The position numbers were made by a program, and so were the translations under genes. Under the pieces are notes generated by a model. The model did no database searches, had not been told where the DNA came from, and worked only from the letters and a program-made list of their open reading frames with translations. A stretch of DNA of 45,668 bases, the filler included, from Jimgerdemannia flammicorona (taxonomy: Eukaryota), in NCBI GenBank assembly GCA_003990765.1. It is 2 parts of 2 records of this genome, joined end to end, with 100 filler letters (N's around TTAATTAATTAA, not from the genome) between each part and the next. Parts side by side here need not be neighbours in the genome. Positions count along the whole stretch, not along the records: positions 22,886 to 45,668 come from RBNJ01001205.1; 1 more part is not named here. One strand, given 5' to 3'. Of this stretch, positions 5,320 to 41,334 are shown in pieces (the first letter of the stretch is position 1; each line of letters opens with the position of its first letter).

Positions 5320-5735
5320 TGTTTGATGAGCCAAATCCTTTAGATCCTTGGATGGTAGATAGTAGTTCAGAGACTTCCTTGACTATTAGGGTTGACTCAA
5401 TTTTCTCAAATAGGATCTGAGCAATACAGAAATCAATAGAGATCTTGAAGAGTGTCCAATTATAGTTTCAGATGAGGATAATAATTTTGCTTGTATAATC
5501 TTCATCAATGACTCCTCCTTCTACTGAGAGTTCTTTCAATGCTAAGCTGCTGTAACAGTATATTATTTCAATATGTCCTTCAGAGATTTGGATACTGATT
5601 TCTGTATAGACTTACTTAATCTCTCAGTTGGAAACTATAGCTTCTTTGGCTGCATACAGGTCATATCCAGCTGCCTTTTGACTTCCTTTACTTGGGGTCT
5701 TGACAGTTTGTCTTAACTTGATAAAGTTCAATGTC
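5320..5735 (-). pseudogene. dut: dUTPase domain of Gypsy A, between nucleocapsid and protease
   Basis: Minus-strand translation shows trimeric dUTPase motifs AAGYDLYA, SSLALK-VEGGVIDEDY and QGSKGFGSS; the last is in frame with the downstream protease. Confidence 0.9.
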
Positions 5736-5799
5736 TTGGTAATCAGATTGTTGAGATGGTATAGAGTAGTAATAGTTGCTTATATTGTTGTTTGGAGTT

Positions 5800-6720: not shown

Positions 6721-8529
6721 GTTCAGCTAAGGTAGTAATGGTTGCTGCTATTATTACTACCTGGACTATAAGGTCTAGAATCTGTTAGTTTGCCATATTG
6801 TTTGCTGAAGGCAGTTAGACTGCTAGTAGTGATGTTACTAGTACTACTTGAGGTACTGGTACAGAGTGTGATAGAGTTCTTTGGGTCTGTGTAAGTTGCT
6901 AAAGTAGTAGTTGTAGGTCTGGAGTGAGGGCTCAATAAATAGCTATTTGTTGCTGTGTAGGTGTATTCTGTCCTGATGGAGGTGCATCTCCTTCAGTAGT
7001 ATGTTCAGGATCAAAGTTACTAAGATACTCCTCCTCTTCTTCAGCTTGGTCCCTGTGTAGTTGAGTTTGCTCAGCATTAAAGTAGATATAATCAGTTATA
7101 TATCTGATTTCAAATAGACTTAATTCAACGTCAAGTTCTGGTTTAGTATTGATTTCAGGTTCAGGTAGAGCTGTAGCAGGGCCTGCTTCTGATTTGGGGT
7201 CAGGTTATTGGCAGAGAGTTTCCCTTACTTCTTCCTTAAGAATATAGCAGGCCTTACAATTCTGGAATCAATAGTATAATACAGTCTTGGTCCTAGTCTA
7301 GTAAAAGTCAGTAGAGTTGAGCCACTTGGCTATAGAGGCTTGGGCTTTATGAAGAACTAAGGCTAAAAAGACTGCTGCTGGTTGTTCTAGATTACTCAGA
7401 TTTGTAGAGCTGACAAAACTCTTATTGAGAAGAGTAAAGAAGACTTCTATAAGACCTTCTTTATCTTGACTTACTGGGTATAGTACAAGGAGTTCAATGT
7501 ATAGGGTTTTACCTATTTGCTAATTTAACTGAAGTACTTCTTTCTTTAAATGAAGTTTATCTACTTATTATAGGTGTAGAGGTTAAATTGTTCTTATACA
7601 TCAGGTTCAATTCTCTCTAGATTGTCAGATAGTTCAGGATAAATTCTAGTTCAGAGATTGGGCTTTATACTAACTTATAGGAATTCTCAGAGAGATTTAT
7701 AGCAGGGTAAGGAAGTATCTTGAAGTAGAATTAGATTGTAAACTGCTGCTACTAAGTTGTAAGAGAGTTACTTGTTAGGGTAACTATTACATAGTTTTGG
7801 GAGGGTTTTCTGAAAGTTCTGGATATTCTAGAAGACCATTTTCTTAAGGTCAAGATCAATTTTATATAGAGTATGTCCTCTATACTTGATTTCAAGATTG
7901 GGTTGACATCTCAACCAAAGTCCTTATTTGAACTAGTTCTGGATGTTTAGGATTTTCTATATTTCAGGAAGTTCAAAAAACTAAGACTAGCTTAGTTGAA
8001 TTGGCATATTTCTGCAGATAATACCCAATTAGGAAATTTCATAATAGGGTTAGGAGTGAGATCTAACAGAGAGCAGATTTACTTAAGAGTGGTTTGTGGG
8101 TTATCAAATAGGTTTATTTGCTATTTATAATATTATTATATTAGAAGTAGTTATATGAAGAGATATTGTGGGAAAGTGTTCAGAAATGTTCTTGTGTATT
8201 TAAGTTTCTAATTCTGAGGTCTGGGAGAGAGAGTATTTATACTAGTGAGGGGCTATCTGGACTATGCTAAATATAGATATAGCACTTAGTGTCTTGCTGA
8301 GTTAGAATATAGTCATATAGTATAAGTGTAATCTGATATGTCAAGAAATCATCTGACTGCTGAGTTAGTTTACAGTCATATCATACAAAGCTAATTTAAC
8401 TATACTATAACTGCTAAGCTATCTATAAATTTAAATGTTATCTGGGTAGTCTTCAATGACATCACTATTAATGACATCATCTCTAATAAAGTAGTCATCT
8501 AGAAAGAGTTGTTTGCAGATTAATTCTCC

Positions 8530-9493
8530 TTATTCACTGAGGTAATAATACATTGAGACTTCATCACCATCTCACAAGATAGCATCATCTGTCTTGTATG
8601 CTGAATAAGGTGTTAGTGAATGAAGAAGGGGTATATTGTCTTCACTTTCATTAGATTTGTCATCTGCATATCTCCTATAAGTTACAGTACTATGAGTTAC
8701 TAGGTTGTAGTAAGCTGGTGGCTATGGTTTATGTTGTTTATACTTAGGTAGTGGAGTTGTTGGTTTGATCTCAAGGGTTGTCTGGAGATATAGATTATAT
8801 TCTCTGATTTCTTCATTATAGTTGAAATAATCAGAAGTGAATACAGGTTGGTACTCATGCCAGTAATCATTGTCTCAATAAGTTTTATAGGTAGTTATAA
8901 ACTGTTGTAAGTTCATCAGCAAGGTTGGCAGTGTAATCAGGGTTGGTGGTATGATCAGAGTTAGCAGAGATCCTTGGCTTGAGGTCATGTTGGCATCAGA
9001 GGGATCATTGTCTTCTGCTTTATCTTTATCAAATTAGATTATATCATAGATGTCTTTTATAGTATATCTGACTTGAGGCATTTGTAGGATATGGTCATTG
9101 GAGTTCTGTCTGTAGTCTGAACATACTTGAGATACTTATGGTTGAGTTCTTGTATCATATCATCTATTTGGCCATAGGACAGGATAGTGATCATATCAGC
9201 TATAGTAACTCAGAGGTAGAGAATAACAGTACTATACTTATAGAAGAGTTCTCGATATTTGTGAGCAATGAGTTTCTAGTATTGAGACATCTGAGTAATG
9301 TCTGTATTATAGTAGTGTTTGACCATATCTTCTAGAAAGCAGCCAATCTGGTAGTAGCTTGAGATTTGTCTGATTTGGTGGGCTTTACTAAATATATTCA
9401 GAATATTCCATCAGGCTTTCATGAAGTAGAGGGGTACTAAGCTATAGATATTCATAAGGGGTAGAGGGGGTGTAACTTAGTTGACAATGGCAT
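8530..9493 (-). pseudogene. Decayed ~320-codon ORF of unknown function inside the presumed 5' LTR of Gypsy A
   Basis: ATG at 9493 after a TATA-like run (9614-9624) and an A/C-rich leader. Long stretches with few stops (LEDMVKHYYNTDITQMSQY*KLIAHKYRELF; DYWHEYQPVFTSDYFNYNEEIREY) ending TAA ~8530. AATAAA downstream at ~8113-8118. Inner LTR boundary unresolved. Confidence 0.5.
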
Positions 9494-10285
9494 TTCAAAT
9501 GTCAGTATAGATATAGTTGTAGATCTCAGTGGTTATGTTTTATATATATTCAGAAGTTGGGGTTATTTGCTTGATTTGTTTGGTTCTCTGTTTTGATATA
9601 TCTTGATACTCAGTATATATATATTTGGTCCTGATTGGTAAGATTCTGTTTGTATGAATCTTGTGTTCTATAACTTAAAGTTGACTCAGCTTTGTGTACT
9701 GTAACTTTGGTTTGACTCAGCTTCATGATCTTGCAGATGATTTCTAGATTTATTCAGGGGTCACATGTGATTTCAGTGGCTTGTTCAGAGGGTGATGTGT
9801 GATTTCAGTAGCTTAGAGGTTGTATGCTTACACCTATACAAGATAGAAGCAATTGAAGAATAGTCCATTCCATTGAACCTTACAGAACTCTGATCCTTCC
9901 TTAGTCTAGCTGGCTACTACTACTACTTTATCAGAAACTTCTCTAGCATTGCTGAGCCACTAACTAATCTTATAAGAAAGGCCCTGCACTTAGACTACTA
10001 TATACTCTATACCTGAGACCTTTTCTATCAACAAGCTTTTTAAGAACTCAAGAACTGCCTGATCTATGCTCTAGTTCTGTATAATGTAGATTAAGGTCTA
10101 AAATTCATGATCACTACTGATGCATCAAATTTTGCCATTAGAATAGTTTTGTTACAAGATGATGGCAAAGGACATCATCTTATTACTTTTGAGTCCTGCA
10201 AGTTAGCTCTGGCTGAATAAAAGCTAGCTACTCATAAGAAAGAACTACTAGTAATAATATATGCACTAGACTACTAGTGATGCTA

Positions 10286-10319
<34 letters not shown>

Positions 10320-10444
10320 GTCGCTTGGACTCCTTTATTCCACTAGTCTAGAAAGAGAACACTATCCATGTATCTCTATGATTACCTATAAACCAACAAT
10401 GAACCCAACCCATAACTATTTAAAATAATACAAAGAAGGACCAT

Positions 10445-13400: not shown

Positions 13401-14080
13401 GGACACCACCGTACCTCAGTTGAATCCAAAACATTACCCCAGCATTCCACCACCAGAATCCAGTCAATTCTTGTACCAACCAAATTCTCACCAACTAGAT
13501 ACCACCTAGTAAATGGCCCTGACTTCTCACCTTGACATTGTCGTACTCCATCAACCAATCCCATTTCCTTCTCAACTTGCAGCTATCATGAGAGCCCTGT
13601 AGAAACCACCACGCCGACTCTACCATCAGACCTATCTAATGTCCTGTCATGAACCATGTTGAAGTCCCCTCCCAAAATGTCCAGCCCAATCTCCTCTCAG
13701 CCTTCCCAATCCAGCCAACCTTCTACCCATTGGTTTCGCTCTCTGCCAACCGCTGGCAGATACGCTGAGCCAACTACAAGCCCATTGCCTGCTCCTCCTT
13801 TCAGTCTCCCCCAGACCAATCGATTACCATACCTCGTGACCTCCTTCAGCTCTCCTCTCCTCAAGCCAACCAGAATGCCCACCTGCTTATTCCACCCTGT
13901 GCTACCATACCATTCCTTGCTCCACTCCTCATAATCTTGCTCCCCATAGGCCCAAATGTCCTGCAGAAATATCAAATCATACCTCCTGTTCTTCAGCCAC
14001 TGAAACAAATACCTTCGCTTCACTCCATCATGCAAACCATTGACATTCAGTGATAAAATACGTAGACTGTTCATCATCAT
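10445..14080 (-). pseudogene. LINE ORF2: APE endonuclease, reverse transcriptase, C-terminal Zn finger (stops and frameshifts)
   Basis: SLNVNGL, IFLQD, TRIDWILV, WSDH (endonuclease); NWRPIMLLNVDRK, QRGFVKGR, LDQEKAYDRV, PQGDPLSPLLY, AFVDD (RT); CEWC..EHVLAAC. Confidence 0.95.
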
Positions 14081-14089
14081 GAATTTAAA

Positions 14090-15975
14090 TGTTTAAATTT
14101 CCACCTGATTCGCCGCCACCTTCTCAGCCCTACTGCAAATAATAGCCTTCCGTTCCTCACAGATACCCCTCCAGATGCATACTCCATTCACCCCATTGCA
14201 AAAGACCACTACTCACTCTGCTGCTACCTTCCTGATTTCAGCCATACAGTTCTCATCAACCTCATATCCTTCATCATCCAGAAGAGCCGCCACCATTGCT
14301 GTCACCAACTTTGGCCCCTACAATGCCATGTTGAGAAACCCTTCCCAGGCCTCCTGCGATCCATTAAACATATCCACTTCCTTGATATCCTCCTCCATGA
14401 GTTCCTCGAGTACTGCCTGATACCAGTCATCTGCCGTCATCACCATGGGCCCTGGGGTGGCAGGCCTTGGAGTCCTGCTCAGCTCCTGCAGCATCTCTCT
14501 ATCTGCTGACACATCAGAAGTCACATCCACCAGATTGTCCTCCTCAGTGCCCTTCTCCAGCCGAACCACTTCGCCTGCCTCTGGGCATTCCCAATGCACA
14601 TTCGCCACTCCTGCCATGCGAACATCCTCCAACTGGGTCTCTGGTACCATCTCGACAACCTCCTCAAAGCCCCCAGTGGTTGCCTCCTCCTTATCTGCCC
14701 ACTTCCCTGTTACCGGTGCATGAGTAGAGTCTGCCACACCCCCTAGTTGTGAAAGGGACATCTCAGCCATCTCCACCTCTTCCATTTGACTTTTGGCCAT
14801 CTCTGCTTTTTCCTCCTCCTCCCTTTTCAAGCCCTGGAGGACTGTCTGCAGATGCTCCCAGTTTGCTCTTTACCACTTCTTCCTCTTCCCATCAGTCAGA
14901 ATCCAGATCCAATCCTTGGCAAACTTCTCCCATTTCCTCTTCCGCAATTCCTTCACAGCCTCTCTCTCCTCTAGGGCGACTAGCAATTCCTCCTCCTCCT
15001 GTTCCAAGTCCTTCCTTCTCCACACTTTGCACTCCTGCCCTCCGATGCGAACTACTTCTGGTCAGTCCCTCTCTTGTCCCATGGCCTCCTTGCCTTCCAG
15101 CCTCACCATCACCTCACAGTTGCCATTCCTCAACTTAGTCCCCTCCCAAAACATGAACCCGAAGTCAACCATCTCACCAAATGCCCCCAGTGCCTCTGCC
15201 ACCATTCTTTTGGTCTCCTGCCTCCCCAGTGTCAGCAGCCCTTCAATCACCAGTCGCACTGCCCGCAGGTCCCATCTCAGGCACCTTGCCATGCCAACCT
15301 TAATGCTCTTGATGACCAGCTCTTTCTCCAAGGCCTTCACCATCTCCTCCTCCTCGACGAATCCTATCTCAACCATCTCAGCTGATGGAATGAACTTCAG
15401 CGACTCTGCCCCTGCAATCTCCTCTTCAACTAGCCACAAGACCTCCCTCGCCGACATCCCCAGCCCCAGAAAATTCGCTGATATGGCCCACGTTGACACC
15501 GATTTGTGGAAGAAGGAACGCACCACCAGTTCACCAGATCTAGCTGCCATCGTCACCTTCTTCTTGTTCTCCGATACTCCAGCAGTCACCCCAGCCACCG
15601 GCCCAGCCCCAGGAATACCAGTCTCAGCCACACCACTTCCAGACCCCTGGCCTCTAGCAGGCACCTGACCAGTCACCTGACCCATCACCTGGCTGGTCAC
15701 CTGACTCCTACCCCTGTCAACACTATGCCCCCTCTGCCCTACCCCCATGGGCCTAGTAGCCACCCTCCTGCCCCCCATCACTGTGTGCCAACCCGCAATA
15801 CCAGCCTGCCTCCCATCACTGTGTGCTAACCCGCAATACCAGCCTGCCTCCCCTGACCACCTACTCCTCCTGCCCCTACACCTGCTCCAACTATCGCCGT
15901 GAAACTCTTGGGGAGACCCAGACCAGGCCTCCTTCTCTCCAAATACTCAGAGCTTGATGAACCCTGGGTTACCAT
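14090..15975 (-). pseudogene. LINE ORF1 (RRM-like region, charged coil, C-terminal helical domain), disrupted
   Basis: ATG at 15975, N-terminal KSFTAIV motif, ORF-track segments 15062-15781 and 14318-14830; homologous to ORF1 at 41335-43218. Confidence 0.75.
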
Positions 15976-16147
15976 CTGACGAAAACTCCACCAAAATAGA
16001 CGAGACTTGTTGTATGCTGTAGCTAGACTCCTGCTGCACCTTGTACACCAGAATAGATGATGGGAAAACTTGAGAATGTGTTGCTTGTCGCGAAAAGATG
16101 TCTGTGTGGCTTAGCTTGCTCTGAATGGTTCGAGCAAAAGGAGTCTC

Positions 16148-16215
16148 AAGAAGTAGAAGACTTCTGGCACCCTATCCTTCAGGACAACCCAGACCAATTC
16201 CTGCAAGGATTGATC
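16148..16215 (+). repeat. 68-bp fragment of the Gypsy B LTR ORF at the LINE 5' junction
   Basis: aagaagtagaagacttctggcaccctatccttcaggacaacccagaccaattcctgcaaggattgatc matches 35461-35528 (2 mismatches) and ~28317-28384. Confidence 0.95.
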
Positions 16216-17679
16216 CACTAGTGATGCTATCTAGAAGGTGTTGAGTTTGATATTATTACTGACCATCAATCTCTTAAGTATATCAACACCCAACTTATCC
16301 TATTATATCTATAAGTCAAGTAGAGCCTCAAGCTTCAAACCTTCAATCTGATGATCATCTATAAGCCTGGTAAAATACTTGTAGTATCAGATGCCTTATC
16401 AAGATGCCTTGACCTCACTACAATTATATAAGTCACCTTATTATCAGAATTTCTAGACTAAATCAGATAAGCTTATAAAGAAGACACAACTATTACTAGA
16501 GTTTTCTTAAATAAGCTCAAGGATATATATACTATTGAGAACAACCTGATCTATCATTAAGACTAAGTCTATTTATCTGAAAATATAAATCTATACTATA
16601 AGGTTTTGCAAGAACATTATAACTCTCCTTTTACTAGTTATCTTAGAATTGAGAAGACTGTCAAGAACATTTAATACTGCTACTATTGGCCAAGTATAGT
16701 CAAGGAACTCAAGAACTATATTACTAGCTATAATCTATATCAGTACAATAAGTCTACCAACCAAGTATCAGCTGGTTTGCTATAACTACTGTCAATCCCT
16801 ACTAAGAAATTTGAGTAAGTTACCATAGACTTTATAACTTAATGATCATAAACTCAATCTGGTACTGATGTTATTATTGCATTCATTGACCACCTAATCA
16901 AGACTATGGTTGCTGAACTAACTACTACCAACATTATTATACTCAAGATTACAAGTATCTTTTTCAAGTCTATTTTTTGTCACTATGACCTACTATAAGT
17001 AATTATTAGTAATTATAACTCCAAGTTCACTAGTTACTTCTGGCAAACTCTCTTCAAGACCCTGGAAACCCAATTGGCTATATCTACTACCTTTTACTCA
17101 CAAACTGATGAATAAACTGAGTATATGAACAGAACTCTAGAATAAATGCTTAGAAACTATATTTCTTATAAGTAAGATGATTGGGACCACTATCTGACTT
17201 ATGCAGAGTTTGTATATAATAACACTATCCAATCATCTACTGGTCTTTTCTCTTTTTAGCTACTCTATAGTCAAGATCTCAAGACTCCTGCAAGTCTATT
17301 CTCTTTCAAAAAAAGTAGTCAAATACAAGTTCCTACTACCAAGAGTCTTACAGACAAAATTCAGAAAGCTCAACAACATCAAGCCAAGTATACTGATAAG
17401 AAATATTATGATATCACTTATACTACTAGAGTTTAAGTTCTACTATCTACTGAGAATCTTAAGATATAATCTTAAGTCAATCACTCTTCAAATAAGTTTC
17501 AACCCAAGTATATTAGATCTTTTGAGATTACTGAATAAGTCTCTGCATTCTCTTACTACCTCAAGCTATCTGAAATCATGAGAGTATACTCAGTCTTTTA
17601 TATATCATACCTCAAGACCTAGAACTAGTTACTGCCTTACTCTAGTTGAATTCCTAAGCCATCTGCTCCTGTGATTATT

Positions 17680-21409: not shown

Positions 21410-22582
21410 TACCCCTTTCTCTGCTATCTTACTAGCTACAATGGTTTGGTCGGTAACCTTTTGAGTCCACTTTCTACAATTATTACTCTCTCTACCTCAG
21501 GTTGGTTTGCTGTACCTATTGCAGAGTAGTGGGAGAGAGGCAATAGTGATGTGTTGCCCCTTTATTGGTATCAGATTGGTATCTTCTCTACTTTTTCACA
21601 GTTTCTAGTACCTTTAGCTATATCTGGAGTATATTCATTTTGGTGTGGCATCTTCTTCCTTTTGCTATTGCCAATAAGATACTATCTTGATATGTCTTGG
21701 GCTACATAGGGAGTCAGCCAATCTTGGGTATCAAGTGCTTAGTGTAGGCTACCTGTAGGTCCTCAGTATCTGTGGTGGGGCTCTCTGGCTTTGCGAGCTT
21801 CCCAGTGAGTACAATTCTAGTATAGATGACTGCTTTTCAGGTATTGTTAGGATAGGAGGGGAGATAGTCATTACAGATAGAAAGAAGGGTAATAATAGTC
21901 AACTAGTAGGGTGCCAGGCTGTGGGTGGTTGTCAGGGCTGAGACAGGTACTGCTTCAGTGGAGTCTTTTGATTGGTGTGGCATAGTTAGGTAGTAGGTAT
22001 TACTCTCAGCTTCTTTTGGCAATTTGGCAGATTGGGCTCCAGTCGTCAGAGGGAGTCAGGGGGCCCGAGGCTATCTATTTTAGGCATCTTGACTACACTC
22101 AACTAGAACTGAGAGCTGATATAACAATATAATCAAGGTCCATAGGCTTGAGTAGTGGGATATTGGGGGTCTCCTCTTGCCTTATATGTAAGTCCTTTAC
22201 TTACCTCGACTGAGAGAACTAGGCCTTATCTACTATATTGTACTTTAATGAGGGTTTTTCTTTACCTATCATTCTCTTTAAGGTAGTGGGGGCTATTCTA
22301 TTTAGCTTGGGTATTGCCTTATATATATATTGGGTTCTTGGGCATATGCTTTCAGTTGTTGGTATATATGTAGCTGGGTTTTCTCTAGTGGTAGAGAGAG
22401 CATAGTGTACAGAATGAGGTGCAGACCAATGTAGGCTCTACTGCACCTAGTATGATTGAGCTGCTGGACAATAACTAGCCTAGGTTAATAGGGGGGCAGT
22501 GCTTGATGGGTGGTAGGGGAGGGTTTTGGCCTATAGTCTAGATTCTCTTTTAATAAAAATCTGCAGAACATTGAGTCTGTTA

Positions 22583-22785: not shown

Positions 22786-22885
22786 NNNNNNNNNNNNNNN
22801 NNNNNNNNNNNNNNNNNNNNNNNNNNNNNTTAATTAATTAANNNNNNNNNNNNNNNNNNNNNNNNNNNNNNNNNNNNNNNNNNNN
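22786..22885. other. Assembly gap: 44 N + TTAATTAATTAA linker + 44 N
   Basis: Symmetric 100-bp spacer carrying stops in all six frames; scaffolding artefact. Confidence 0.97.
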
Positions 22886-23330
22886 TTCATAGTCATGCCA
22901 GAGGGTCATTCGTTCGGTAGTGTCTTTGAGCTGTTGGGTCATTATATACTGGTAGTTGATGAAGTGTCCAAGGTCCTCAGTGTAGAAGTTCAAGTGTTCG
23001 GAAGTATCTGGGTGCCAGATGGCCTTCTTGATAGCTTCAAAGATCAGGGTCTTTGGGCCAGGCAAAGGGGTAGAGTGGCAGGAGGTCTGGTTGGTTCGGC
23101 GAATGGGAGGCATTGTGTGGTGGGTACTTGGTTCTTTGGTGCCGATCTCTGAGGCAAAGCAGGGTTCCTTAAATAATGTGGTCTTCATTTTGGCTCGAAT
23201 CTTCTTGTCTCCTTTTGGGATGATCACCTAATGGATCAGGCTGTCTATTTGATTGTCACGCCATTATGTCGTCTGATCTTATAGTCACAGGGTACTCTGA
23301 ATTTGGACAGGGTCAATTGTAGATGTCACA
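22886..23330 (-). mobile_element. 5' part of an LTR from a third family, carrying a homolog of the Gypsy B LTR ORF; truncated by the gap
   Basis: Starts TGTGACA at 23330 beside an (AT)n run. ORF from ATG 23113 (MPPIRRTNQ..IFEAIKKAIW..LNFYTEDLGHFINY..TTERMTLWHDYE) aligns by eye with 27842-28080. Confidence 0.8.
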
Positions 23331-23727
23331 ATATATATATATATTCTTAAGCTTAATTTATAAATTGAATAGCTGAGATTTCAGATGAAATTGATTTAAT
23401 ATACATACTTACATATGATAATTATATAGAGTCTCTTATATCTCATGAGTTATTTTTATATATATTATGAACTTTGTTTATAAATTTGATATTATGAATA
23501 TGATTTTATATATGTAATACTTAGTAATTATTTATAGTATTATAATTTTAAATTTGTACTTATAGCTTTATACTCTACTAAGCCATATTCTTCTAGAAGA
23601 TTTAATATATAAAATACCCAAATAATATAATCTTTCTTATTGAAGATCAGAATAGATCTTATGGCTATGTTTAAACTAATAACTAGAACTATATTTTTAT
23701 TATTATAGTTATACTAGTAGTTATAAT

Positions 23728-24151
23728 TAGTGCTCTCAATGAATCGAATCAAATTGAATTTGGCCCAAACTCAATTCGATTTGATCAAATCAAGGGTCCA
23801 ATTCGATTTGATTCAAATTGAATCAAAGGTCCAATTTAATTTGAAGTTTGATTCGAACCTTAATTTTCAAAATGTAATAACTCGACTAAACCTCATCCAA
23901 ATTTAACATATTTTAGCTTGTTAGATTTACTGTATTAATGTAATTCTAACAAGCTAAAGTAAGTTAGATTTAGATGAGTTTACACTGAGTTATTGCATTT
24001 TGAAAATTAGGGTTTGAATCAGACCCTCAATTTGATTTGACTTTTGATTTGATTCAAATTGATTTGAATTGAAAAATCCCCAATTTGATTCGACTTGTTT
24101 AACCCTCAATTTGATTTGATTTGAATTGATTCGACTCATTTGGGAGCACTA
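23728..24151. mobile_element. hAT-type MITE, 424 bp, near-complete foldback
   Basis: TIRs TAGTGCTC..GAGCACTA. Exact 8-bp TSD GTTATAAT (23720-23727, 24152-24159). Subterminal TTCGA/TTTGA pentamers; internal inverted arms centred ~23935. Confidence 0.92.
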
Positions 24152-24188
24152 GTTATAATAGAGACTACTTCTATTATTACTAGAATAC

Positions 24189-25740
24189 TATAATATAATA
24201 GGTGCATAACTAGATAAATGTAGCAGATTTCTATAACTCTTCTTGACTCCTCAGAGTTACAAGTAGTATCTATCTGATCTCATTATCAGACTATCAGAGT
24301 AAGGCTTAAACTCTTTTGATCTGAGGTTTATTTACTCTAGATACTGAGATATTTATACAAGTTTACTAGCTATTAAGTGGCTAAGTTATGACTATATTTC
24401 CTATAAGTTACTTTTTATAAGTATAGATATTCTATATTTGTAAAATCTCTACATTTATAAAGTTTCTATGTTTGTAAAATGACTGTTATTTGTAAGAGTT
24501 TAGATACTGTAATCAAATATCTATTTTCTATTTTTATTTCATACTATATATTATATCTTCCTAAATAGATTATTTTTAATATAAAAATATCTATTCAAAT
24601 TCCTAAATCTCAATGTTTATATGTATATTTGTTCCCCTTATATAAACATATTTGTGATATATTAAAGCAATTATTAGAATTTTTTTTGAGATTCTAAAAA
24701 AAGTCTTTAAATAATTAATTCAGATAATAGTATATATATCATCAAAAGTCAGATAATGGTATCTTCAAAAAGTAATATAGTAGTAAATCATATACTTGTA
24801 TTACAAGATGGCTTCCAGGCTTATCTAATATAGATATCTTCAAAAATTAAGAGAAAGCAAATCATATATTATAGGACAGTAATTGTATATTATGGAATAG
24901 TAAATTATATATTATAGGATCATAAACTGTATATTATAGGATGATAAATTATATAACACAGAATAGCATTTCATATATTATAGGATGGCAAATAATATAT
25001 CATAGGACAGCAAATTGTATATCATGGAATAGCTTCTAGGCTTGTTGAGTATAGGTAATAGATCATATCTTCAAAAGTTGAATAATGATTTATATATTAT
25101 CAAAAATCAGATAATGATGGTTTGTATATTGTCAAAAGTTAGATAATAATGACTTGTATCTTCAAAAGTCAGGTGGTAATAAATCATATATTACAGAATA
25201 GCTTCTAGGCTCATCAAGTATATAATAAGCCATATCTTCAAAAGTTGGGTGGTAGCAAATCATATATTATAGGATAGCTTCCAGGCTCATTGAGTATAGG
25301 TAATAGACTTTGGAATGATAAATCATATGTCACAGGACAGATGGTATCAGTTGTTCATTGTTTAGCTTAAAAGTGAGAGATTTATCTTGACTTAAATTAC
25401 CAGTCAATGGGTATTAAGTTGTAATATAGTAGATATATAATCAGGAAAATGCAGAAGATTTCTATAACTCTTTTTGTCTCCTTAGAGTTATAAGTAGTAT
25501 CTATCTGATCTCATTATTAACTATCAGGGTGAGACTCAAACTCTTTTAATCTAAGGTTTATTCACTCTAGATACTGGGATATTTATATAAGTTTGCTAGC
25601 TATAAGATGGCTAAGTTATGACTATATTTTCTATAAGTCACTTTTTATAGGTATAGATTCTGTACATCTATAAAATCTCTATATTTATAAACTATGATCA
25701 AATGTCTATTTTCTTTTTCTATTTTATACTATATGTAACA
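24189..25740 (-). mobile_element. TRIM-like non-autonomous LTR element; LTRs 25420-25740 and 24189-24555
   Basis: Direct repeats of ~320-370 bp, 4-bp TSD ATAC. PBS/leader ~25340-25419 and PPT 24556-24563 resemble Gypsy B. Interior is non-coding tandem repeats. Confidence 0.85.
24700..25340. repeat. Composite tandem-repeat array inside the TRIM-like element
   Basis: About 8 units of 22 bp (atatatcataggacagcaaatt-like) at ~24863-25033, plus recurring tatcttcaaaagtcagataat and gcttccaggctcat units. Confidence 0.8.
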
Positions 25741-25799
25741 ATACTTATAATTAGTATACATATCTATTTCACCACTTATATTGCTAGGCTGATCATTAC

Positions 25800-27599
25800 T
25801 TATTAATTCTAGTATAATATATATTAAAAAGAGAAGGGGTTTTTTTTTACTATAGCTACTTAGTACTTATGAGACTTATAATCTTTATTGTAAAAGAGAG
25901 ATCAATTTTATAGAAGTTATATATATATATTACATATTTTATATATTACTAATAAATAATATAAAACTGATAGAATAGTATAATTATATATTAATATATT
26001 GAGTTATTATTAAAACATTTTAATAGTACTTAGAGTTCTTAGGTATTACTTATAATTTAGAAAGAAAAGAATTTTTTTTATTAAAATCTATTTAATTATT
26101 TTATTTATATTAGCTAAAGATTCTAAGTATCTGCTTCAGAGTTTTATTAATATATAGAGTAATATATAAATTATAGAAGAATTTTAACTTTATATATAAA
26201 ATATAAAAAAATAACTTTAAAAGTTACTTATAAACTTTATATAATTAAAAACTAAAGTACTTAACATATTATTTGTATAATCTAAATATAAAGTTAAAAA
26301 ATATTTCAGTAGTTTCAAAGACTGTTGTAGTAATTTTTATTAGTATAAAGTAGATTTATTTACTAATATAGTCTACAAATATAATAATAATATTCTAATT
26401 ATTTCTAATTTTAAAGAGTTATATAATAAAGTTTATTATAATATAATTTTTAGTTATAAATTAAATTGAAAGAAGTTATAAAAACTAGCTAATAGTTTAT
26501 TATTACTTTAGAATTTTTAATATATATATTAAAGAAGACTATAAAGATTTTAATATCTTTAAATATTTTACTAGTAATATTTTTGAGAAATAAGATTATA
26601 GATTTTATTAAACTAAAATTTTTCTATATCTGAAATATTATATAAATAATCTTAAGTCTGGGATTATTATTTCTAGATATTACTACTTATTTATAAACTT
26701 TATAAATAAGTTTATCTCAATATATAAATCTCTTAATTATTTTTTTTATAACTTCAGATATTTTGGAGTCTAGATTCTAATAATACTAAAGAAAATTCAG
26801 CAATAGATTATTCTTTTATTAATTATCTTTAATGAGTTAAATAAGATTACTAATAACTTTAATAAAAAGAATAAGTTAGTTTTCTATATCTTAAGAATAT
26901 ATCTATTATTTAGTAAAATATATTTATCTCTATAATAAAAATATAATGATCTTTATTTATTATTCTTAATTATAGATCAGTATTTACTAAATATATTTAA
27001 GAGTATAGTAATTTATATACTATAAAAGATTATTTAAATAAGAAATAATATTATTTTTTGAAGGCTATAACTATAGTAAATAACTTTTTTTTATAAATAA
27101 TATAGTTTATTTTGACTGACTTGAGTTTCTGAGAAAGGTAGACTACTGAATAGTCTTTTTGACTAAATATTATTTTAATAATAATATTAGAAATATTAGT
27201 TATTAAAGTAAAATTTTTTAATAAATTTAATATAATAAGAATTAAGATATTAGTTAAAAGTCTTTTGAGATAGTTCATATATAGTCTTAATACAGATATG
27301 AGTTGATTCATTTTTAATATTTATATTCATTTGAATTAGACTAATAAGTAAAGCTATAATAGCTCAGTATTTATAATAAATTATTAATAATATGTATCTA
27401 ACTATTTTTAAGAATCTTTACTATAATTTAAAAGTTATTGAAATACAGAAATTCTATAGTACTAATACTTTTTTTAAATTCTATATTGATACTATTACTT
27501 AAGATAATATAAACTGGATAATTAATTAGTTTTTAATAAAACTTATTTTTATATAGTTAGTATTTTATAATATAATTGATATACTTTTAAAATAGATAT
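25800..27599 (-). pseudogene. pol: Extremely AT-rich Gypsy pol relic D (RT end, RNase H, probable integrase); left boundary approximate
   Basis: FTLITNISNIIIKIIFSQKDYSVVYLSQKLKSVKINYIIYKKKLFTIVIAFKK is a hypermutated Gypsy RNase H (TDAS..GAVLSQ..PVAYLSRKL..EKELLAIV). Confidence 0.75.
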
Positions 27600-27714
27600 T
27601 ATAATGATGACCCCAGAATGATGACATCAGCACAGGAGACAGCCTTTCCTTATAAGCCACCAGATCAGAGCATAAGAAGATTATATGGCATACAAGATGA
27701 GCAATGATGACCAA

Positions 27715-27761
27715 CTATGAGTCATTGTGACCACAGTATGAGTATCTTGAAGAATATAAAA
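27715..27761 (+). promoter_or_regulatory. Putative promoter of the LTR ORF: ATGAGTCAT (AP-1/Gcn4-like) and TATAAAA
   Basis: ATGAGTCAT 27717-27725, TATAAAA 27755-27761, about 80 bp upstream of ACAAAATG; core motifs retained in the 3' LTR. Confidence 0.5.
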
Positions 27762-27841
27762 GAAGGATCAAGGAACTGTAGTAGCAGCAACCAACAAGAA
27801 CCACCAATCCCAAAATAGCTCAAAGACTTACCACAAACAAA

Positions 27842-28645
27842 ATGCCTACTACCCGCCAAACCTTAAGGTCTAGAAATCACCAAGGTATCTTAGTTGAGAA
27901 AAGGATGTTCCAAGACATCAGAAGAGCCATGAGGACCTGCTCAAGAAGGACTCCTAGTGTCAACCTGGGTACTGCAGACCCTTATCACTTTATCCTCTAC
28001 TACTGCGAAATAGAAACAAGGATCACCATTACTACCAAATACCTCCAAATGTGGCAGGAGTACAAAATAGAAAACCTCCTCTGCCGGGAGTTCCAACAGG
28101 CCAGCACCCAAGAGCTACAAGATGCCACTCCCATGGATATACATGAAACAAGGACAGCTAAGAAGATCCATCAGATCTTCAGACATGCACCATGGTCGAT
28201 CCTCAACTTGGAGTATGTTAGAGTCTCAGATTTCAGAGACCTATCATCCTGCTGTATCAATATACTAGAAGCCAGGATGGCTACAGAAGCTCAGTCCACT
28301 ATCACCCTCAATAGTGAAGAAGTAGAAGACTTCTGGCACCCTATCCTTCAGGACAACTCAGATCAATTCCTGTAAGAATTGATCTCAGTATTCCAAGGCC
28401 CAAGCATCTGGGTTAGATCTCCCCAAGACCCCACATTTGTTCCTTATTTTGTAGAAGAGAACCTCATAGACTGGAGAGCTCCAGACCTTGTCTCTGATTT
28501 CCCCACCACAGCCGAACATGATGACATCATTGATGATGTCATCCTGCATGACATCGAAGTACGCAAAAATGACGAATTTGCAGATCTCATCTCCTTCAGT
28601 GATGATGATGATGAAGCCCCCATAATCCTGAACTTTCTGCTCTAA
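27842..28645 (+). pseudogene. LTR-encoded 267-aa ORF of unknown function (5' copy, one premature TAA)
   Basis: ORF-track segments 27842-28375 and 28379-28645 are in frame; the stop is CAA in the 3' LTR copy. Confidence 0.85.
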
Positions 28646-28815
28646 GTTCTTTATTTACTGGATAATGCCAGCACCAGCATTCTGAGGTGACGCGAAATTA
28701 TTCCAGCACTGGTATTTTGATGTGACACTAAATAATACCAGCCCTAGAACTTAGTAGTTTTAGTTATTGGAATTTATATTTAGCTTTATATCTTAGCAAT
28801 CATTGAATTATATTT

Positions 28816-28850
28816 TATATAAATACCCCTCTTATTTTCTCTGAAATAAA
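28816..28850 (+). promoter_or_regulatory. Second TATA box and AATAAA signal at the presumed U3/R region
   Basis: TATATAAATA 28816-28825 and AATAAA 28845-28850; equivalent motifs near 35998-36030. Confidence 0.55.
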
Positions 28851-29059
28851 GTTGGTTCCTCTTAGTGCAACATACACACTTCCTTGCAAGCAATCTAAGA
28901 GATAACAAGATAGTTAAAGATAAGAAGTTTGAGGACTATAAGACCTTGGGAAGGCACTCCAACAAGAACTTGCTTATAACAACTTGAGTTAGTCAAAGAG
29001 ATATATCTTGAAGAGAATCTGGCATATTTGAAGGACTCAGCGACCACTATTTGACAACT

Positions 29060-29077
29060 TGGTGCCCATTGGCTGGT
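29060..29077 (+). promoter_or_regulatory. Primer-binding site of Gypsy B
   Basis: TGGTGCCCATTGGCTGGT, 3 nt after the LTR end; starts with TGG, complementary to tRNA CCA. Primer identity not established. Confidence 0.7.
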
Positions 29078-29137
29078 GATTCAAGATGAATCCCTCACTT
29101 TCAAGCTGAAAAATGAACAACCCCCACAACAACTACC

Positions 29138-32100
29138 TTGACTACAAGAGTCACCTCTGCAAGAATTCAAGACAAGATGGAAATACGCCCCCCCACATTC
29201 TATGGATATACTACTGAAGAGTTAATCCTGACCTTCATTGAAGACTTTGAACAATTTACTGCCATACAAGCTCTTGGTGTGGATGCTCAATTGGCCCTTC
29301 TACCAGTCAGCCTCAGAGGACCTACCAGAGACAAGTTCAATGCAGCCACCATTGCTGATGCTGATGCAGCCAAACTTGCCAATATGAAGATCTTCCTCAG
29401 AACAACATATTATACCAAAGAGATCAAGTAAGCTCTCAAGGATCAACTCAATTCTATCTGCCAGGGACTTAGTGAAGATCCCAACTCATTCTATATCCAA
29501 ATCTGCCACCAGATTGTCTTGGCTGGCTATGATGATGCCCTCAAGAAACAAATAGCAGATTCAACCTTCCTCAAAGGAGTTCACCCTGAAATTGCTCTAG
29601 CAATTCAGTCTACCCTAGCTGCACTGACCCTTGATCAGAAAGTGGTCTTTACACAGAGATATTGGACTGCTAGACACCCTGCCAAACACTCAATGGAGAA
29701 AATAACTGGCATAAAGATGGAGCCATCAAAGCCGACTAGTATCTTATCTGCCACAGTTGTAAACAGACAACCAACCCCACCTATCTCCAAGATAGCCAAA
29801 GCTGACCCAGTGGAAGAACTTGCCAAGCAGTTTGCCAAGATGACTGCACACCTTGGTGATGTTGTTAGAGAAGTCTGAAGTGCCAACAGGAGACCAGTGC
29901 AGAGATTTACAGCTGCTACAGAAGAATGCAATATCATATGCTTCAGATGAGGAGAAGAAGGCCACTATGCAAAGAGTTGCATGACCGAAACAAGATGCAA
30001 AGCCCAACCAAGCAATGCTAGCAGAACCAGAGAACAAACTAATGCAGTAGTCATCGAGGAGATTGGTGACACTGATGATGAGGAATACTATGAGGAGCTC
30101 GAATTCTACCCTGCTACCGAAGGTACCAGAACCCGGTCCAAGCCATATGACAAGAAGAGCAACAGCAAGCCAGTTGGAAGACCAAAAAAGACTCCAGCTG
30201 TCACTATTCAAAGTAAGACCCAACACAAGGAGATTGATCAAGACATAGAGTTAGACGAGGCTGCCTGCCAAATTATCGAAGGCACTACTCCAGTCTCAGG
30301 AGAAAGCAAAAGCAAGAAGGAACAGAAGCTGTGCAAGACCAAGATCCACTAGTATGACATCTACAAGGACCTCAAGGAACAGAAGGTCAATGCCACTTTT
30401 GGGTAGCTAGCTAAAGTCTCTGCCTTCAGACAGCAGTTGAGAGTAGGACTTGCAACTACTATCAAGAATGAAGAGTACAAGATTGTAGAAGCTCACAATG
30501 TACAAGAAGAATCTGAGAACTCAGGTGAAGAATCTGAAGACCAGTGCAAGACATCAGCCTATACCCCCTGCCAGATCAAAGACTTTATCTTTGATGCCAT
30601 CATTGATACTAGTGCTGGAGGATGCCTCATGAGCAAGAAGGCAATTGACCACCTAGGTTGGGACATTGAAGAGTCCACCAAGATGGTCTATATCACAGCA
30701 GATGGTATACAAGCTACCCCCCTTGACAAAATCCAAGAAGTACCCATTAAGATAGAAGGAGCTACCATCCCAGTAGACATGATTGTTACAAGCACCACCA
30801 ACTATGACATCCTCATTGGCAACCAATGGCTTCACAAGGCCAAGGCCATCATTGACCTCAATGTCCAGAAGATGCAGATCAACTACAAAGGAAGAAAGGT
30901 ACAAGTTTCTATCAATGTCCACAAAGGAGTCCTGTCAGACATAGAGGAAGGAGATGAAGAAGACACAGAGGTCTTCATGCACTCAGTGAACAAGAATAAG
31001 AACAAGACACCCAAGCTTACAGATGAGCAGTGGTATAACAAGATCATTGATGGGTATGCCCCTCAAGGAAGATGCCCCCATGGTACTAGAATGTACTGCT
31101 CCAAACACCTGAATGACTGCTGGTCCTGTATCAGTGAAGTCAGGAAAATCCATCAACAGAAATATGAGCAAGAAGCTGCTGAAGTAAAAAGGAAAGCTGA
31201 AGAAGATGACCAGCCCCCAGAGCTTCAAGCTGACAGTGATGATGAGAAGGAATAAGAATCAGACATCACCCTTAAGGTCAAGAAGTTTCACCCTGAAGTT
31301 AAGATCCCAGAATACAAGACTGAAGGAGCCATAGGAATGGACCTTGCTAGCATCCAAGATGCTACCCTTGAACCACAGACCACAACCCTACTTGGCACTG
31401 GAATTGGAGTCAAGTTGCCAGAAAACCATACCGGAATTATCAAGACCAGGAGCAGTCTGGCCAAAAGTGAAATCTCAGTTGAAGGAGGAGTAATTGACCC
31501 TGATTATACTGGTGAGATTTTTCTCATAGTCAGAAATCACAACCACACCACCCCCTTCAAAGTCAAGAAGCATGACAGGATTGGCCAGATGCTGATCCAC
31601 GAAATCAAGAAGCCCAAGATCATAGAGGCCACTGAACTTATCAAGACCAAGAGAGGAGAACAAGGCTTTGGATCTACTGGAAGAGGAGCCTATGCTGCCA
31701 CCAAGATTACTGAACTTGAGCACAAGAAAGATAAGGACCAGGACAAGCACATATATACCATTGGAGAAAACTTTCCCCTGGAGGAACAACTTCTCAAGAT
31801 CCTGTACCAGAACAAAGGAGTACTTGCTACAGACTTTAGGGATATCCACAATCAAGAACCCAAATACCACCATGAAGTTGACACTGGTGATACCAAGCCT
31901 ATCTATCAGAAAGCCAGACCCATACCACCTGCCTACAGAGAGTGGCTGTGAGCTAAACTCAAGGAAATGGAAGAAGCTGGAATCATCAAGCAAGCTATCA
32001 GCCCCTGGGTCTCACCAATTGTCCTTGCCCCAAAGAAAGGAAGCAAGTCTGGAGAGTTTGCACCAAGACTCTGCATTGACTACAGGAAACTCAATGCCAT

Positions 32101-33157
32101 CACCAAGAAGGATAGGCAGCCCTTGCTGAATATTCAAGAAATCCTTACCACTCTTGGAAGCAAAGCCAAATACTACACCACCTTGGATCTGTTCTCAGGC
32201 TTCCATCAAATCAGTCTCAATCAAGATGCCAGTGAGAAATCAGCCTTAATCACACCTGATGCCACCTATATCTATCTGCGAATGCCATTTGGAATGTACA
32301 ATGCCCCAGCAAGTTTCCAGCGAATGATGAACAGAGTCTTCAGCAATGAGATTGGAAAATGGTATTGATGATGTGATCATCTTCAGCAACACTACATGGG
32401 AACATGTCAATCACATACAGCTAGCCCTCAAGAGGCTCAAGGAGTATGGCCTCTACATCAAGCCCAAGAAATGCAAGTTTGCAGCTCAAGAAAACGCCTA
32501 CCTAGGACACCTCATCAACCAGACTGGAATCCACATAGACCCCATGAAGATCGAGGCTGTTGCAGCCTACCCAAGACCCAGAACAACCATGAAGTCCATG
32601 CCTTCCTTGGACTGGCCAGCTACTACAGAAGATTCATCAAAGGATACTCCAACATTGCAGTACCTATCTATGAGCTACTGAAGAAGGAGACCAAATTCGA
32701 ATGGACCAAGGAGTGCCAAGAAATCTTCAATGAACTCAAGACCAGGTTGACCCAAGTACCTATCCTCAGAAGACCAGACTGGAACCTAGAATTCACCCTG
32801 CAGACAGATGTGAGTGCTATAGGACTTGGAGTGGTTCTAGCTCAGAAGAAAGATGGACATAAATATGTCATCTCCTACACAAGCCAAGATACCCATGGAG
32901 CAGAACAGAACTATGAGTCATGCAAGCTTGAATGCTTAGCAGTAGTTTGGACAGTAGACAAGTTCCACTACTACCTAGCCGGAAAACACTTCACCATTTA
33001 AACAGACCATTCTGCTCTTGCCTGGCTATTCCACACTCTGAACCCCAAAGGAATATATGCCAGATAGATCTACAGGCTACAAGAATATGACTATACTGTC
33101 AAGCATCACCCAGGAAAGACCAATACCAATGCCAATGCACTCTTAAGGAAACCCTGA
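29138..33157 (+). pseudogene. pol: Gypsy B gag-pol: gag, Zn knuckle, protease, Cys module, dUTPase, RT, RNase H
   Basis: Six ORF-track segments from 29138 to 32368 share one frame. CFR*GEEGHYAKSC; IIDTSAG; SPWVSPIVL, LCIDYRKLN, LDLFSGFHQI, MPFG, IDDVII; FLGLASYYRRFI, QTDVS. Confidence 0.95.
31270..31685 (+). pseudogene. dut: dUTPase domain of Gypsy B, between protease and RT
   Basis: All five motifs: GMDL, RSSLA, GVIDPDYTGEI, RIGQ, RGEQGFGSTG. Confidence 0.95.
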
Positions 33158-33182
33158 AACATCACCATCAAGACTATTCAAC

Positions 33183-34395
33183 ATGAATAAGAAGCTATAC
33201 TATGGATTAATCAGCTACCTTGGGCAGTGGAAGATGCTCAACCACCTCGAACTCTGGACAATCACCATCATCAACCAGACTTGGAAACAGTTTGAATTAG
33301 ACAACACTACACTCAGAAAAGGAGGAAAGCTAGTAATACCTGAATATAAGAAGTATCAAGTAATGAAGGAAGTACACAAGCAAGGACACTTAGGAGGAAC
33401 CAACACATACGACAAGGCAAGAAGAATCATATGGTGGCCCAAAATGGAAGAAGACCTGCGCCAATTTGTCAAAGGGTGTGACAAGTGCCAAAAACAGAAA
33501 CAATATCAGCAAGACCAGATACCTGGATCATCAAGAATTGAGCCTATCCCCTTCCACCATATCACAATGGATATCATTGGACTACTACCAGTAACACTAT
33601 CAGGAAACTGCTATATTATAGTTATTATAGACCTCTTCACCAAATGGATAGAGGCAGGAGCATTACAAGAAGCCAATGCCCTCTCTATAGCTGATTTCCT
33701 ACACCGAGAAATCATCTGCCACTATAAGACACCAAAGCAAATCACAAGAGACTGCAGCACAGAATTTGTCAATGGATTCCACAAGATAATGTACCAAAAA
33801 TACAAGATCCAGCACATCAAGACCACTGCATACCACCCTCAAGAAAATGGACAGACAGAGAGAACCAACAAGACCCTCAAGAACATCCTAGCAAAGATCT
33901 CAGAGACATATGAGAATTAGGATAACTATCTCCCAACTGCCCTCTCTGTTCTATGAGACATACAGTCACAGAGCACACATTTTACCCCAAGAGAGCTGCT
34001 CTTCGGAGAAGAAGATTCTAATGGAACCTCAGCCACAAATCTAGACCTAACTTGGAGATGGGTTAATGCAGAAATCCAGAGACTACACCAAATCAGGAAG
34101 AAGGCTGAAGATTACATCACCAAGTTACAAACACTGACAAGGAAGAATGCGGAAAAGAATCACAAGGCCCTAGAACCCATCCAAATTGGAGAAAAGGTTC
34201 TACTATATCGAAATATAGTAGAAGCCTCATGGTCATGAAAACTGGAGCCCAAATGGGAAGGACCCTTCTACATGCAAGATATCAAGGGAACTACCTTCTG
34301 GCTTAGAAAAATCTCAGAGACCATACTGCCTACTATGGTACATAGAAACAGACTCAAGAAGTACCACGAACCTATACAAGAGAAGCAAAATGTGA
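33183..34395 (+). pseudogene. Gypsy B integrase (HHCC, DDE core, GPY/F; no chromodomain)
   Basis: H..GH..CDKC, MDIIG, IDLFTKW, TAYHPQENGQTERTN, KLEPKWEGPFY. Confidence 0.93.
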
Positions 34396-34743
34396 TGACC
34401 GCTCATGAGGTTCTAGTCCACAAATCATAACAGCATGTCCCATGACCAGCAGGCTATCTGTCTAGACCATTCTCTAAGGGATATGGCACTGGCAACTACT
34501 CATCCATGAGACTTTTGAAGTCAGAAGAGTTTGAACTGTCAACTGATTGGTCAAGATCAGAATCAGGCCCTTGCTCTATATGAAGGGAGTGACCCTTCAC
34601 CATCATGCCAAAATACAAAGGGAAGACACTAGTCTATAAACACCAGTTTTCAACCCCTTGCCAGAGGTTATGAGATCAGTAAATTTTTCAGGACTGGACC
34701 AATGAATAAGGATGCTCAGGAAGATCTTTATTCAGGAGGAAGA

Positions 34744-36236
34744 TGTAACAGTGACCCCAGAATGATGAAATCAGTACAGAAGACAGCCTTTCCTTATAAG
34801 CCACCAGATCAGAGCATAAGAAGATCATATGGCATATGAGATGAGCAATGATGACCAACTGTGAGTCATTGTGACCACAGCATGAGCATCCTGAAGAATA
34901 TAAAAGAAGGATCAAGGAACTGCAGTAGCAGCAACCATCAAGAACCACTAATCCCAAAATAGCTCAAAGACTTACCACAAACAAAATGCCTGCTGCCTGC
35001 CAAACCTCAAGGTCAAGGAATCACCAAGTTATCTTAGTTGAGGAAAGGATGTTCCAAGACATCAGAAGAGCCATAAGGACCCACTCAAGAAGGATTTCTA
35101 GTATCAACCTGGGTACTGCAGACCCTTATCACTTTATTCTCTACTGCTGCAAATTGGAAACAAGGATCACCATTGCTACCGAATACCTCCAAATGTGGCA
35201 GGAGTATGAAATAGGAAACCTCCTCTGCCGGGAGTTCCCACAGGCCATCACCTAAGAGCTACAAGATGCTACTCCCATGGATATACGCAAAACAAGGACA
35301 GCTAAGAAGATCCATCAGATCTTCAGGCATGTACCATGGTTGATCCCCAACTTGGAGTATGTTAGAGTCTCAGATTTCAGAGACCTATCATCCTGCTGTA
35401 TCAATACACTAGAAGCCAGGGTGGCTACAGAAGCCCAGTTCACTATCACCCTCAACAGCAAAGAAGTAGAAGACTTCTGGCACCCTATCCTTCAGGACAA
35501 CCCAGATCAATTCCTGCAAGAATTGATCTCAGTATTCCAAGGTCCAAGCATCCAGGTTAGATCTCCCCAAGACCCCACATTTGTTCCTTATTTTGTAGAA
35601 GAGAACCTCATAGACTAGAGAGCTCCAGACCTTGTCCCCGATTTCCCCACCACAGCCGAATGTGATGATGTCATCGATGACATCATCCAACATAACATTG
35701 AAGTATACGAAAATGATGAATTCGTAGATCTTATCTGCTTCAGTGATGATAATGATGAAGCCCCCATAATCCTGAACTTTCTGCTCTAAGTTCTTTATTA
35801 TACTGAATAATGCCAGCACCATTATTCTCATGTAATACTGGATAATGCCAGCACTGGTATTCTGAGATGATACGAAATTATTCCAGCACTGGTATTTTAA
35901 TGTGACACTAAATAATGCCAGCCCTGGAACTTAGTAGTTTTAGTTATTGGAATTTATATTTAGCTTTATATCTTAGCAACCATTGAATTATATTTTGTAT
36001 AAATACTCCTCTTATTTCCTCTGAAATAAAGTCAGTTCCTCTCAGTGCAATACACATACTTCCTTGCAAGCAATCTAAGAGATAACAAGACAGTTAAAGA
36101 TAAGAAGTTTGAGAACTATAAGACCTTGGGAAGGCACTCCAATATGAACTTGCTTATAACAACTTAAGTTAGTCTAAGAGATACACCTTGAAGAGAATCT
36201 GGCATATTTGAAGGACTCAGCGACCACTATATGACA
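34744..36236 (+). repeat. 3' LTR of Gypsy B (1493 bp), preceded by PPT AGGAGGAAGA
   Basis: TGTAACA start directly after the purine tract; ends ATGACA, then TSD ATAT. Confidence 0.95.
34986..35789 (+). pseudogene. LTR-encoded 267-aa ORF (3' copy, two premature stops)
   Basis: Same 804-bp length as the 5' copy; stops TAA 35253 and TAG 35616 are CAA and TGG in the 5' copy. Confidence 0.85.
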
Positions 36237-37584: not shown

Positions 37585-37627
37585 GTCACTTAGACTTTCT
37601 TTCTTCTCTTTATTAAAATACAATCTA

Positions 37628-41303: not shown

Positions 41304-41334
41304 AAGGAATAATTTTGTTTATCAATTGTGCCCT

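Follow-up and report, generated by a model that had tools for sequence, protein, structure and literature searches.

We analyzed a window of 45,668 nucleotides from the genome of Jimgerdemannia flammicorona (231 Mb in 35,354 contigs). Within it, LINE-like and Ty3/Gypsy elements lie nested in one another and CpG is scarce—the observed/expected ratio is 0.13 overall and 0.04–0.40 in the elements. Gypsy families A, B, and E each carry here an accessory open reading frame (ORF), or its remnant, within a long terminal repeat (LTR), and the features concerned are collected in Table 1.

Table 1. Features of the window that bear on the accessory ORF, in order of position.
Feature	Positions	Strand	Remarks
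Decayed distant homolog in 5' LTR, family E	9108..9518	-	LTR start ~9832
68-bp piece of family A LTR ORF	16148..16215	+	
Scaffold gap, N run with TTAATTAATTAA insert	22786..22885	.	contig C1204 stops at 22785
5' end (U3) of family B Ty3/Gypsy LTR	22886..23330	-	5' or solo LTR
Accessory ORF, family B, first 76 codons	22886..23113	-	cut by assembly gap
TATA-like box TATTTAA, family B	23169..23175	-	62 nt above ORF ATG; putative promoter
(AT)n flank	23331..23344	.	insertion site of the family B copy
Family A 5' LTR	27600..29056	+	promoter-like TATAAAA of the ORF at 27755; main TATAAATA at 28818; AATAAA at 28845
Accessory ORF, family A, in U3	27842..28645	+	267 codons, one in-frame stop
Family A internal region	29060..34743	+	PBS-like, gag-like, protease-like, dUTPase, RT/RNase H, integrase, PPT, in that order; several stops, frameshifts
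Family A 3' LTR	34744..36236	+	92% identical to 5' LTR
Accessory ORF, family A, second copy	34986..35789	+	two in-frame stops

Other repeats surround these features. LINE-like copies with poly(A) tails lie at 1000–2560, 10330–16000, 37590–43700, and 44850–45668; the 68-bp piece of the family A ORF (window 16000–16220) sits at the 5' end of the second of these, which is on the minus strand. An old family E Gypsy element, also on the minus strand, occupies 2500–9832 and retains RT, integrase, and dUTPase remnants. Segments 54–975 and 21601–22535 are inverted copies of one repeat, 77–91% alike, and 23700–24150 holds short TTTGATTCGA-like repeats together with a 132-nt inverted repeat (23799–23930 / 23940–24071).

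The family B copy in the window runs on the minus strand and begins with TGTGACA at 23330; the ATG of its accessory ORF follows 217 nt further in, at 23113. Another in-frame ATG, at 23188, sits above the TATA-like box, so 23113 is the likelier start. The gap hides the remainder of this copy and is thus likely far longer in reality than 100 nt; the palindrome within it (22830–22841) is probably a scaffolding remnant. With an (AT)n flank upstream in place of a polypurine tract (PPT), the copy is taken to belong to either a 5' LTR or a solo LTR. Complete copies elsewhere in the genome encode an accessory protein of 328 aa within an LTR of ~2.45 kb with the ends TGTGACA..CACA. A PPT lies directly 5' of the LTR in 11 of 22 copies, and all 11 flanks of the other kind end in TAT or TAG—LTR families here often insert at TA-rich or (AT)n sites, as seen at window 23331–23344 and in the flanks of loci L001–L022 and L081–L089. 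In copy L021 the LTR is followed by a primer binding site (PBS) and gag, and by a pol with Pfam matches to protease, dUTPase, RT, and the integrase zinc finger, in that order; copy L088, a solo LTR, shows an ATATA target-site duplication. Family B is thus a true Ty3/Gypsy LTR family, with TG..CA LTRs, PPT, PBS, target-site duplication, and pol order. L021:3129–4118 also holds a long Pro/Glu-rich extension before the gag-like region and a Cys/His-rich stretch before the dUTPase, with no Pfam match to either; the gag-like frame of family A likewise has no Pfam match. The B ORF ends ~450 nt upstream of the main TATAAATA and AATAAA, which places it, on these motifs, in U3.

A genome search with B DNA returned 850 candidates, among them 40 scored matches at 95–100%. 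Sixteen of the 22 copies examined were translated; seven span the whole ORF, and three of these seven are stop-free at 328 aa. A first-pass annotation of the window had proposed that its B copy may be young, having retained CpGs and having no stop before the gap. The frame is indeed open, over a span of just 76 codons; the proposed youth did not hold up, as the copy has 9 CpG in 444 nt against 7–14 (median 11) in 21 siblings and differs from them by 13–21 transitions, so that it is no younger than they are. At the level of families, B looks younger than A, from LTR pairs that are 96% identical over 716 nt in B and 92% over 1450 nt in A.

The same annotation had read the B and A ORFs as homologous at the protein level within LTRs of dissimilar DNA, and both halves of this reading were borne out. 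Local protein alignment of the window B peptide with the family A ORFs scores 59 for the 5' LTR copy and 68 for the 3' LTR copy, and none of 5000 shuffles reaches either score (maxima 57 and 51); at full length, the B protein (P0002, 328 aa) and the A protein (P0001) share 24% identity over 165 aa (E=6e-11). The B and A DNA aligns with a score of 23, which 64 and 58 of 300 shuffles reach and which is therefore not significant. The ATG had been put at about 220–240 bp from the LTR start in both families; it lies 217 nt from that point in B and 242 nt from it in A (ATG at 27842, LTR start at 27600).

Five dUTPase-bearing Gypsy families carry the gene: in A, B, and E it lies in U3, and in C and D between integrase and PPT. 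Families C and D came from using metagenome relatives as seeds in the genome, and family E from a profile scan of the window. First-look searches gave, besides the B figure, 6395 (A protein), 3104 (D protein), and 4095 (E DNA) candidates, none of these four figures being a copy number. The family C ORF (269–275 aa) follows a chromodomain integrase (Pfam Chromo, E=1e-12), with PPT and TG directly after its stop in 18 of 19 copies. In family D only a core of 153 aa is present, its ATG overlapping the integrase stop and its end lying just ahead of the PPT; 150 scored copies of it stand at 91–100%. The family E ORF starts 288 nt into the LTR; the E homolog of the window is weak alone (i-E 0.009 in the window scan), and sibling copies reach down to 1e-9. 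Without exception the gene reads in sense and stands at the element's 3' end, with the main LTR TATA and the poly(A) signals following it. The stretch from integrase to PPT in families A and B, compared with the D protein, gave no significant match that would mark a further paralog there. Each of the five families has dUTPase in at least one copy; among family C copies it is present in L128 and missing from L080 and L127, and a deleted C sub-family may thus have spread. L080 (C2614) is a head-to-tail repeat with a 6.04-kb period, and it has neither gag nor dUTPase.

Outside this genome, profile searches of 1.84 billion representatives gave 14 matches, of which 13 are plausible and none carries a family name; the remaining one, the ankyrin protein P0021, was dropped as a repeat artifact. 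Two short metagenome contigs are, by inspection, C-like (L053) and A-like (L054). None of 52 pattern matches on viral contigs was confirmed. The suggestion that the gene family is widespread therefore stands for its high copy number in this genome and for a few unnamed metagenome proteins, its reach being shown only there. Calling it an LTR gene, as the first-pass annotation did, is right for A, B, and E and wrong for C and D; that annotation had also held that homologs lying mostly outside LTRs would speak against it, and the two families with the gene outside go part of the way.

Selection on the ORF was gauged from dN/dS (NG86, first 215 codons) with best hits picked for open frames, 14 of 15 of them stop-free. 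Across lineages, the ratio is 0.14–0.17 for C against L053 (5 pairs) and 0.17–0.21 for A against L054 (6 pairs), at a dS of 1.3–1.5 that is near saturation. Within families it is 0.17–0.47 in A (15 pairs), 0.21–0.69 in B (6 pairs), and 0.15–0.35 in nine of ten C pairs, the tenth giving 2.2 at a dS of 0.014. Indels present in at least two copies point the same way: in family A (21 copies) 11 of 13 keep the frame inside the ORF against 0 of 8 outside it, and in family C (19 copies) 4 of 4 against 3 of 24; those of family B are uninformative. There is also a third-position bias. By these patterns of substitution and indels the accessory ORF is a coding gene under purifying selection, and the earlier idea of a selected gene family common to diverged LTR families finds its support in the homology (E=6e-11), the low dN/dS, and the frame-keeping indels.

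All five families have a TATA-like box 62–88 nt above the ATG. A box at 55–95 nt was found in every copy scored of families B (17 of 17), C (22 of 22), and D (12 of 12) and in 19 of 21 copies of family A—these being the copies with an anchor among 30 A, 22 B, 25 C, and 13 D loci, with a pattern set after the sequences had been seen and with copies in a family that are not independent of one another—while internal 40-nt windows gave 1 of 128 and 4 of 172. One E copy and both metagenome contigs, L053 and L054, have the box as well, and all 72 copies scored in families A to D carry A at base -3. Family D is the most telling case: there the box TATAAAA, 86 nt above the accessory ATG (L118:1357–1445), is made of the integrase codons ATA AAA (11 of 11 rows); in its sister family A, with the cassette in the LTR, the same Ile-Lys is written ATC/ATT AAG (12 of 12 rows). 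A box conserved at a fixed spacing suggests that the accessory gene has its own promoter. Contigs from two presumed RNA runs, of uncertain kind, lie over 22887–34744; they cover the family A LTR and hardly the B fragment.

The history of the gene appears to differ from that of its carriers. In pol, A and D are 66–71% identical, C and E 46–48% (~150 columns), B and either A or D 39–42%, A and C 35–37%, and B and C 36–37%. The accessory ORFs, which share 15–42% between families, rank otherwise: 42% for A and C, 28–30% for A and B, and 17% for A and D. An AU test rejects an A+D clade of the ORF (p=0.01), with long branches involved. Families B and C also have 251 bp in common at 84% identity, just behind the integrase (L004:1161–1410, L073:983–1231), and 45–48 bp of this segment recur in L053; the segment was not found in A or D. 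Because the ORF tree conflicts with the pol tree and because B and C have this segment in common, we infer that a 3' module has been exchanged, and thus moves, between Gypsy lineages. The segment folds no better than its shuffles (z -1.5 and -0.8), and its tRNA-like look came to nothing (ARAGORN found no tRNA in 26 loci or in the window, and Rfam no match in 6 loci). On the unrooted pol tree, placement in U3 (A, B, E) or internally (C, D) needs at least two changes, whose order is undirected because the tree has no root. The simplest route into U3 would be for the PPT to move to a place upstream of the cassette.

The encoded protein has an Arg-rich, basic N-terminus (4–7 K/R in residues 1–35), a core of ~130 aa with helical periodicity in several windows, and an acidic tail (14–31 D/E against 1–5 K/R in five of six proteins). 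The core is not basic, K/R standing at or below D/E in residues 36–150. The family D protein, at 153 aa, has neither the middle segment nor the acidic tail. Hydropathy reveals no transmembrane or signal-like stretch in any of six proteins (maximum over 19 residues -0.02 to 1.29; N-terminal mean negative). The motif D-L-I-x-F occurs in the otherwise unalignable acidic tails of A, C, L053, and P0018, and P-x-x-L-N-F occurs in these and in that of L054; from this recurrence they are possible host-binding motifs.

Searches of Pfam, PHROGs, and PDB sequences gave no significant match for the accessory protein; neither Pfam nor PDB supports Tas/Bel1 homology, and the Pfam families PF03078 and PF20167 do not match. 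A helix-turn-helix candidate, DUF1016_N / DUF3102, was not supported, with no genome match in a word-seeded first look and an hhalign probability of 0.1% against one YhcG sequence as the single template; a scan for YhcG relatives found one locus only, too few for a profile. ATHILA ORF1 / Transposase_32 was set aside as well, its Atlas values of 0.83–0.84 falling below the bar of 0.9 and not being repeated with a second family member. The Atlas model of P0014 is poor (pLDDT 0.38), with matches at a TM of at most 0.39. As for other families, Zn2Cys6 matches number 88 in this genome and occur in none of 14 control genomes, which marks the host of these elements as a fungus.

The reading we favor, to which we give a little under even odds (about 0.45), is that the accessory protein acts in trans in the nucleus as a soluble regulator comparable to Tas or VANC, turning on the main LTR promoter or lifting its silencing. 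Foamy-virus Tas is a transactivator of the LTR promoter, and this reading is favored because an early, separately promoted, soluble, and acidic-tailed protein has the layout of Tas, and because the genome shows methylation-type decay. A short RNA would be transcribed from the gene's own promoter and end at the LTR poly(A) site, independently of the genomic RNA; with the PPT upstream of the cassette, the gene would be copied into both LTRs and every solo LTR. The basic N-terminal arm and the ~130-aa helical core may bind DNA or chromatin, the acidic, aromatic-dotted tail may recruit host factors, and the regulator would then switch on or de-silence the main LTR promoter in a genome with heavy CpG decay. 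Against this, a non-basic core is weak for a DNA binder, the helix-turn-helix lead failed, and family D has no acidic tail—the tail must hence be dispensable.

Several other functions have to be weighed. The protein could be a counter-defense adaptor whose tail motifs bind a host factor for silencing or degradation (in RNAi or DNA methylation, or a chromatin reader), with no binding to the LTR. The recurrence of the two motifs in acidic tails and the non-basic core suit such an adaptor, and fast divergence with lineage exchange fits an arms race; however, the tailless D protein is well conserved in its 150 copies and the host partner is hypothetical, and we regard this reading as unlikely. Rather improbable is an RNA-stage factor of the CERV/Rev kind, which would bind a cis element in the genomic RNA and aid its export or packaging: export needs no acidic tail, and the 251-bp B/C segment, a non-coding stretch just upstream of the cassette that might have supplied the element, shows no folding signal, matches neither Rfam nor a tRNA, and did not turn up in A or D. 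The Arg-rich N-terminus nonetheless agrees with such a factor, and there is a precedent in CERV of Cer1, an LTR retrotransposon (PMC10309623).

More improbable again is the control of copy number or of competitors, in which the protein, made also from solo LTRs, would repress its own or rival families. Self-limiting copy-number control is known from p22 of Ty1; the U3 position does spread the cassette into solo LTRs (L088, with its target-site duplication), and an independent promoter would allow action without gag-pol. Yet the carrier families are very abundant, the protein has no similarity to gag, and repression alone hardly explains exchange between lineages. An Env-like or movement protein would sit where the gene does in C and D, at the env position, but the lack of a transmembrane or signal-like stretch in all six proteins and of any env family match makes it very improbable. 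Least probable of all is a neutral captured frame hitchhiking in the LTR, since the many stops (the frame is free of them in 3 of the 7 B copies translated at full length and in 12 of the 30 A copies taken as best hits) post-date insertion and also strike pol, and since the ORF, though known here as a gene predicted from its sequence, shows third-position bias, low dN/dS, and frame-keeping indels in recently transposed lineages.

Beyond the favored trans-regulator lies a wider reading that we hold as doubtful: an undescribed regulator family may form a self-contained unit of promoter and gene, exchanged among Gypsy lineages, that has moved into or out of U3 on more than one occasion. If it were true, every LTR of such a family, solo LTRs included, would supply a trans-activator or anti-silencer by itself; retrotransposons would then have an equivalent of the regulation seen in complex retroviruses, and its feedback loop could be part of the reason why these elements expanded in this genome. 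To our knowledge, the common view holds retrotransposon LTRs to be non-coding and solo LTRs to be inert promoters; here, three Gypsy families have a selected gene entirely within U3, and two relatives have it outside U3. The series from integrase end to spacer to U3 offers a natural record of gene entry into an LTR. Should the protein regulate or de-silence the element that carries it, this fungus would provide an example of a regulator encoded by a retrotransposon. There is also a warning for annotators—accessory ORFs such as this are liable to be annotated as thousands of "hypothetical" host genes.

What can be said of its kind is that the gene is real and selected, matches no known family, occupies an unusual place, and is an accessory ORF of LTR retroelements. 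Searches of a mostly open-access literature, Repbase and GyDB entries aside, showed no report of this accessory ORF family and none of a retrotransposon gene wholly inside U3, and the available text of PMC6875170 and PMC11963269 has nothing on LTR-located genes. The carriers resemble the fungal Ty3/Gypsy LTR retrotransposons with dUTPase of PMC2864245, for which no LTR gene is described in the available sections: A and B have the same LTR-PBS-gag-PR-dUTPase-RT-RH-IN-PPT-LTR order, and family C is like them with its chromodomain integrase. For a fungal or spikemoss element, a figure legend in the same source mentions an "additional ORF with unknown function", which may bear on novelty.

Among accessory genes, the sense additional ORFs of PMC7264820 are close: the gene here is conserved in most copies and under selection, and in C (18 of 19 copies) and D it is the same conserved extra ORF between pol and PPT, toward the 3' LTR. 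It is, however, not env-like, has no enzyme domain, and has its own TATA instead of splicing; and a position wholly inside the LTR, where the A, B, and E genes lie in U3, is not listed there. The bdelloid ORF3 types (PMC5408684) are likewise accessory genes common to distant element lineages. VANC and the Athila ORF domain (PMC13547354) offer the same picture of lineage-specific, fast-evolving accessory proteins in a methylated genome, although VANC belongs to plant DNA transposons, unlike the Gypsy carriers here.

Retroviruses supply the nearest parallels for position and layout. MMTV sag is described in PMC9147501 as a U3-overlapping accessory gene in a long LTR (1.3 kb, against 1.5–2.45 kb here), and the gene here lies inside U3 and in both LTRs; sag, though, comes from a retrovirus and is a type II membrane glycoprotein that acts on T cells, whereas the accessory protein is soluble, fungal, and of no detected similarity to it (no Pfam match or hydrophobic segment). 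Foamy-virus Tas, with which the accessory protein has no sequence similarity, is not wholly in U3; it is, however, a 3' accessory gene with an internal promoter in the upstream coding region (PMC7828637), to which the TATA-like box of family D, as a putative promoter, is comparable, and an acidic tail is common to both proteins.
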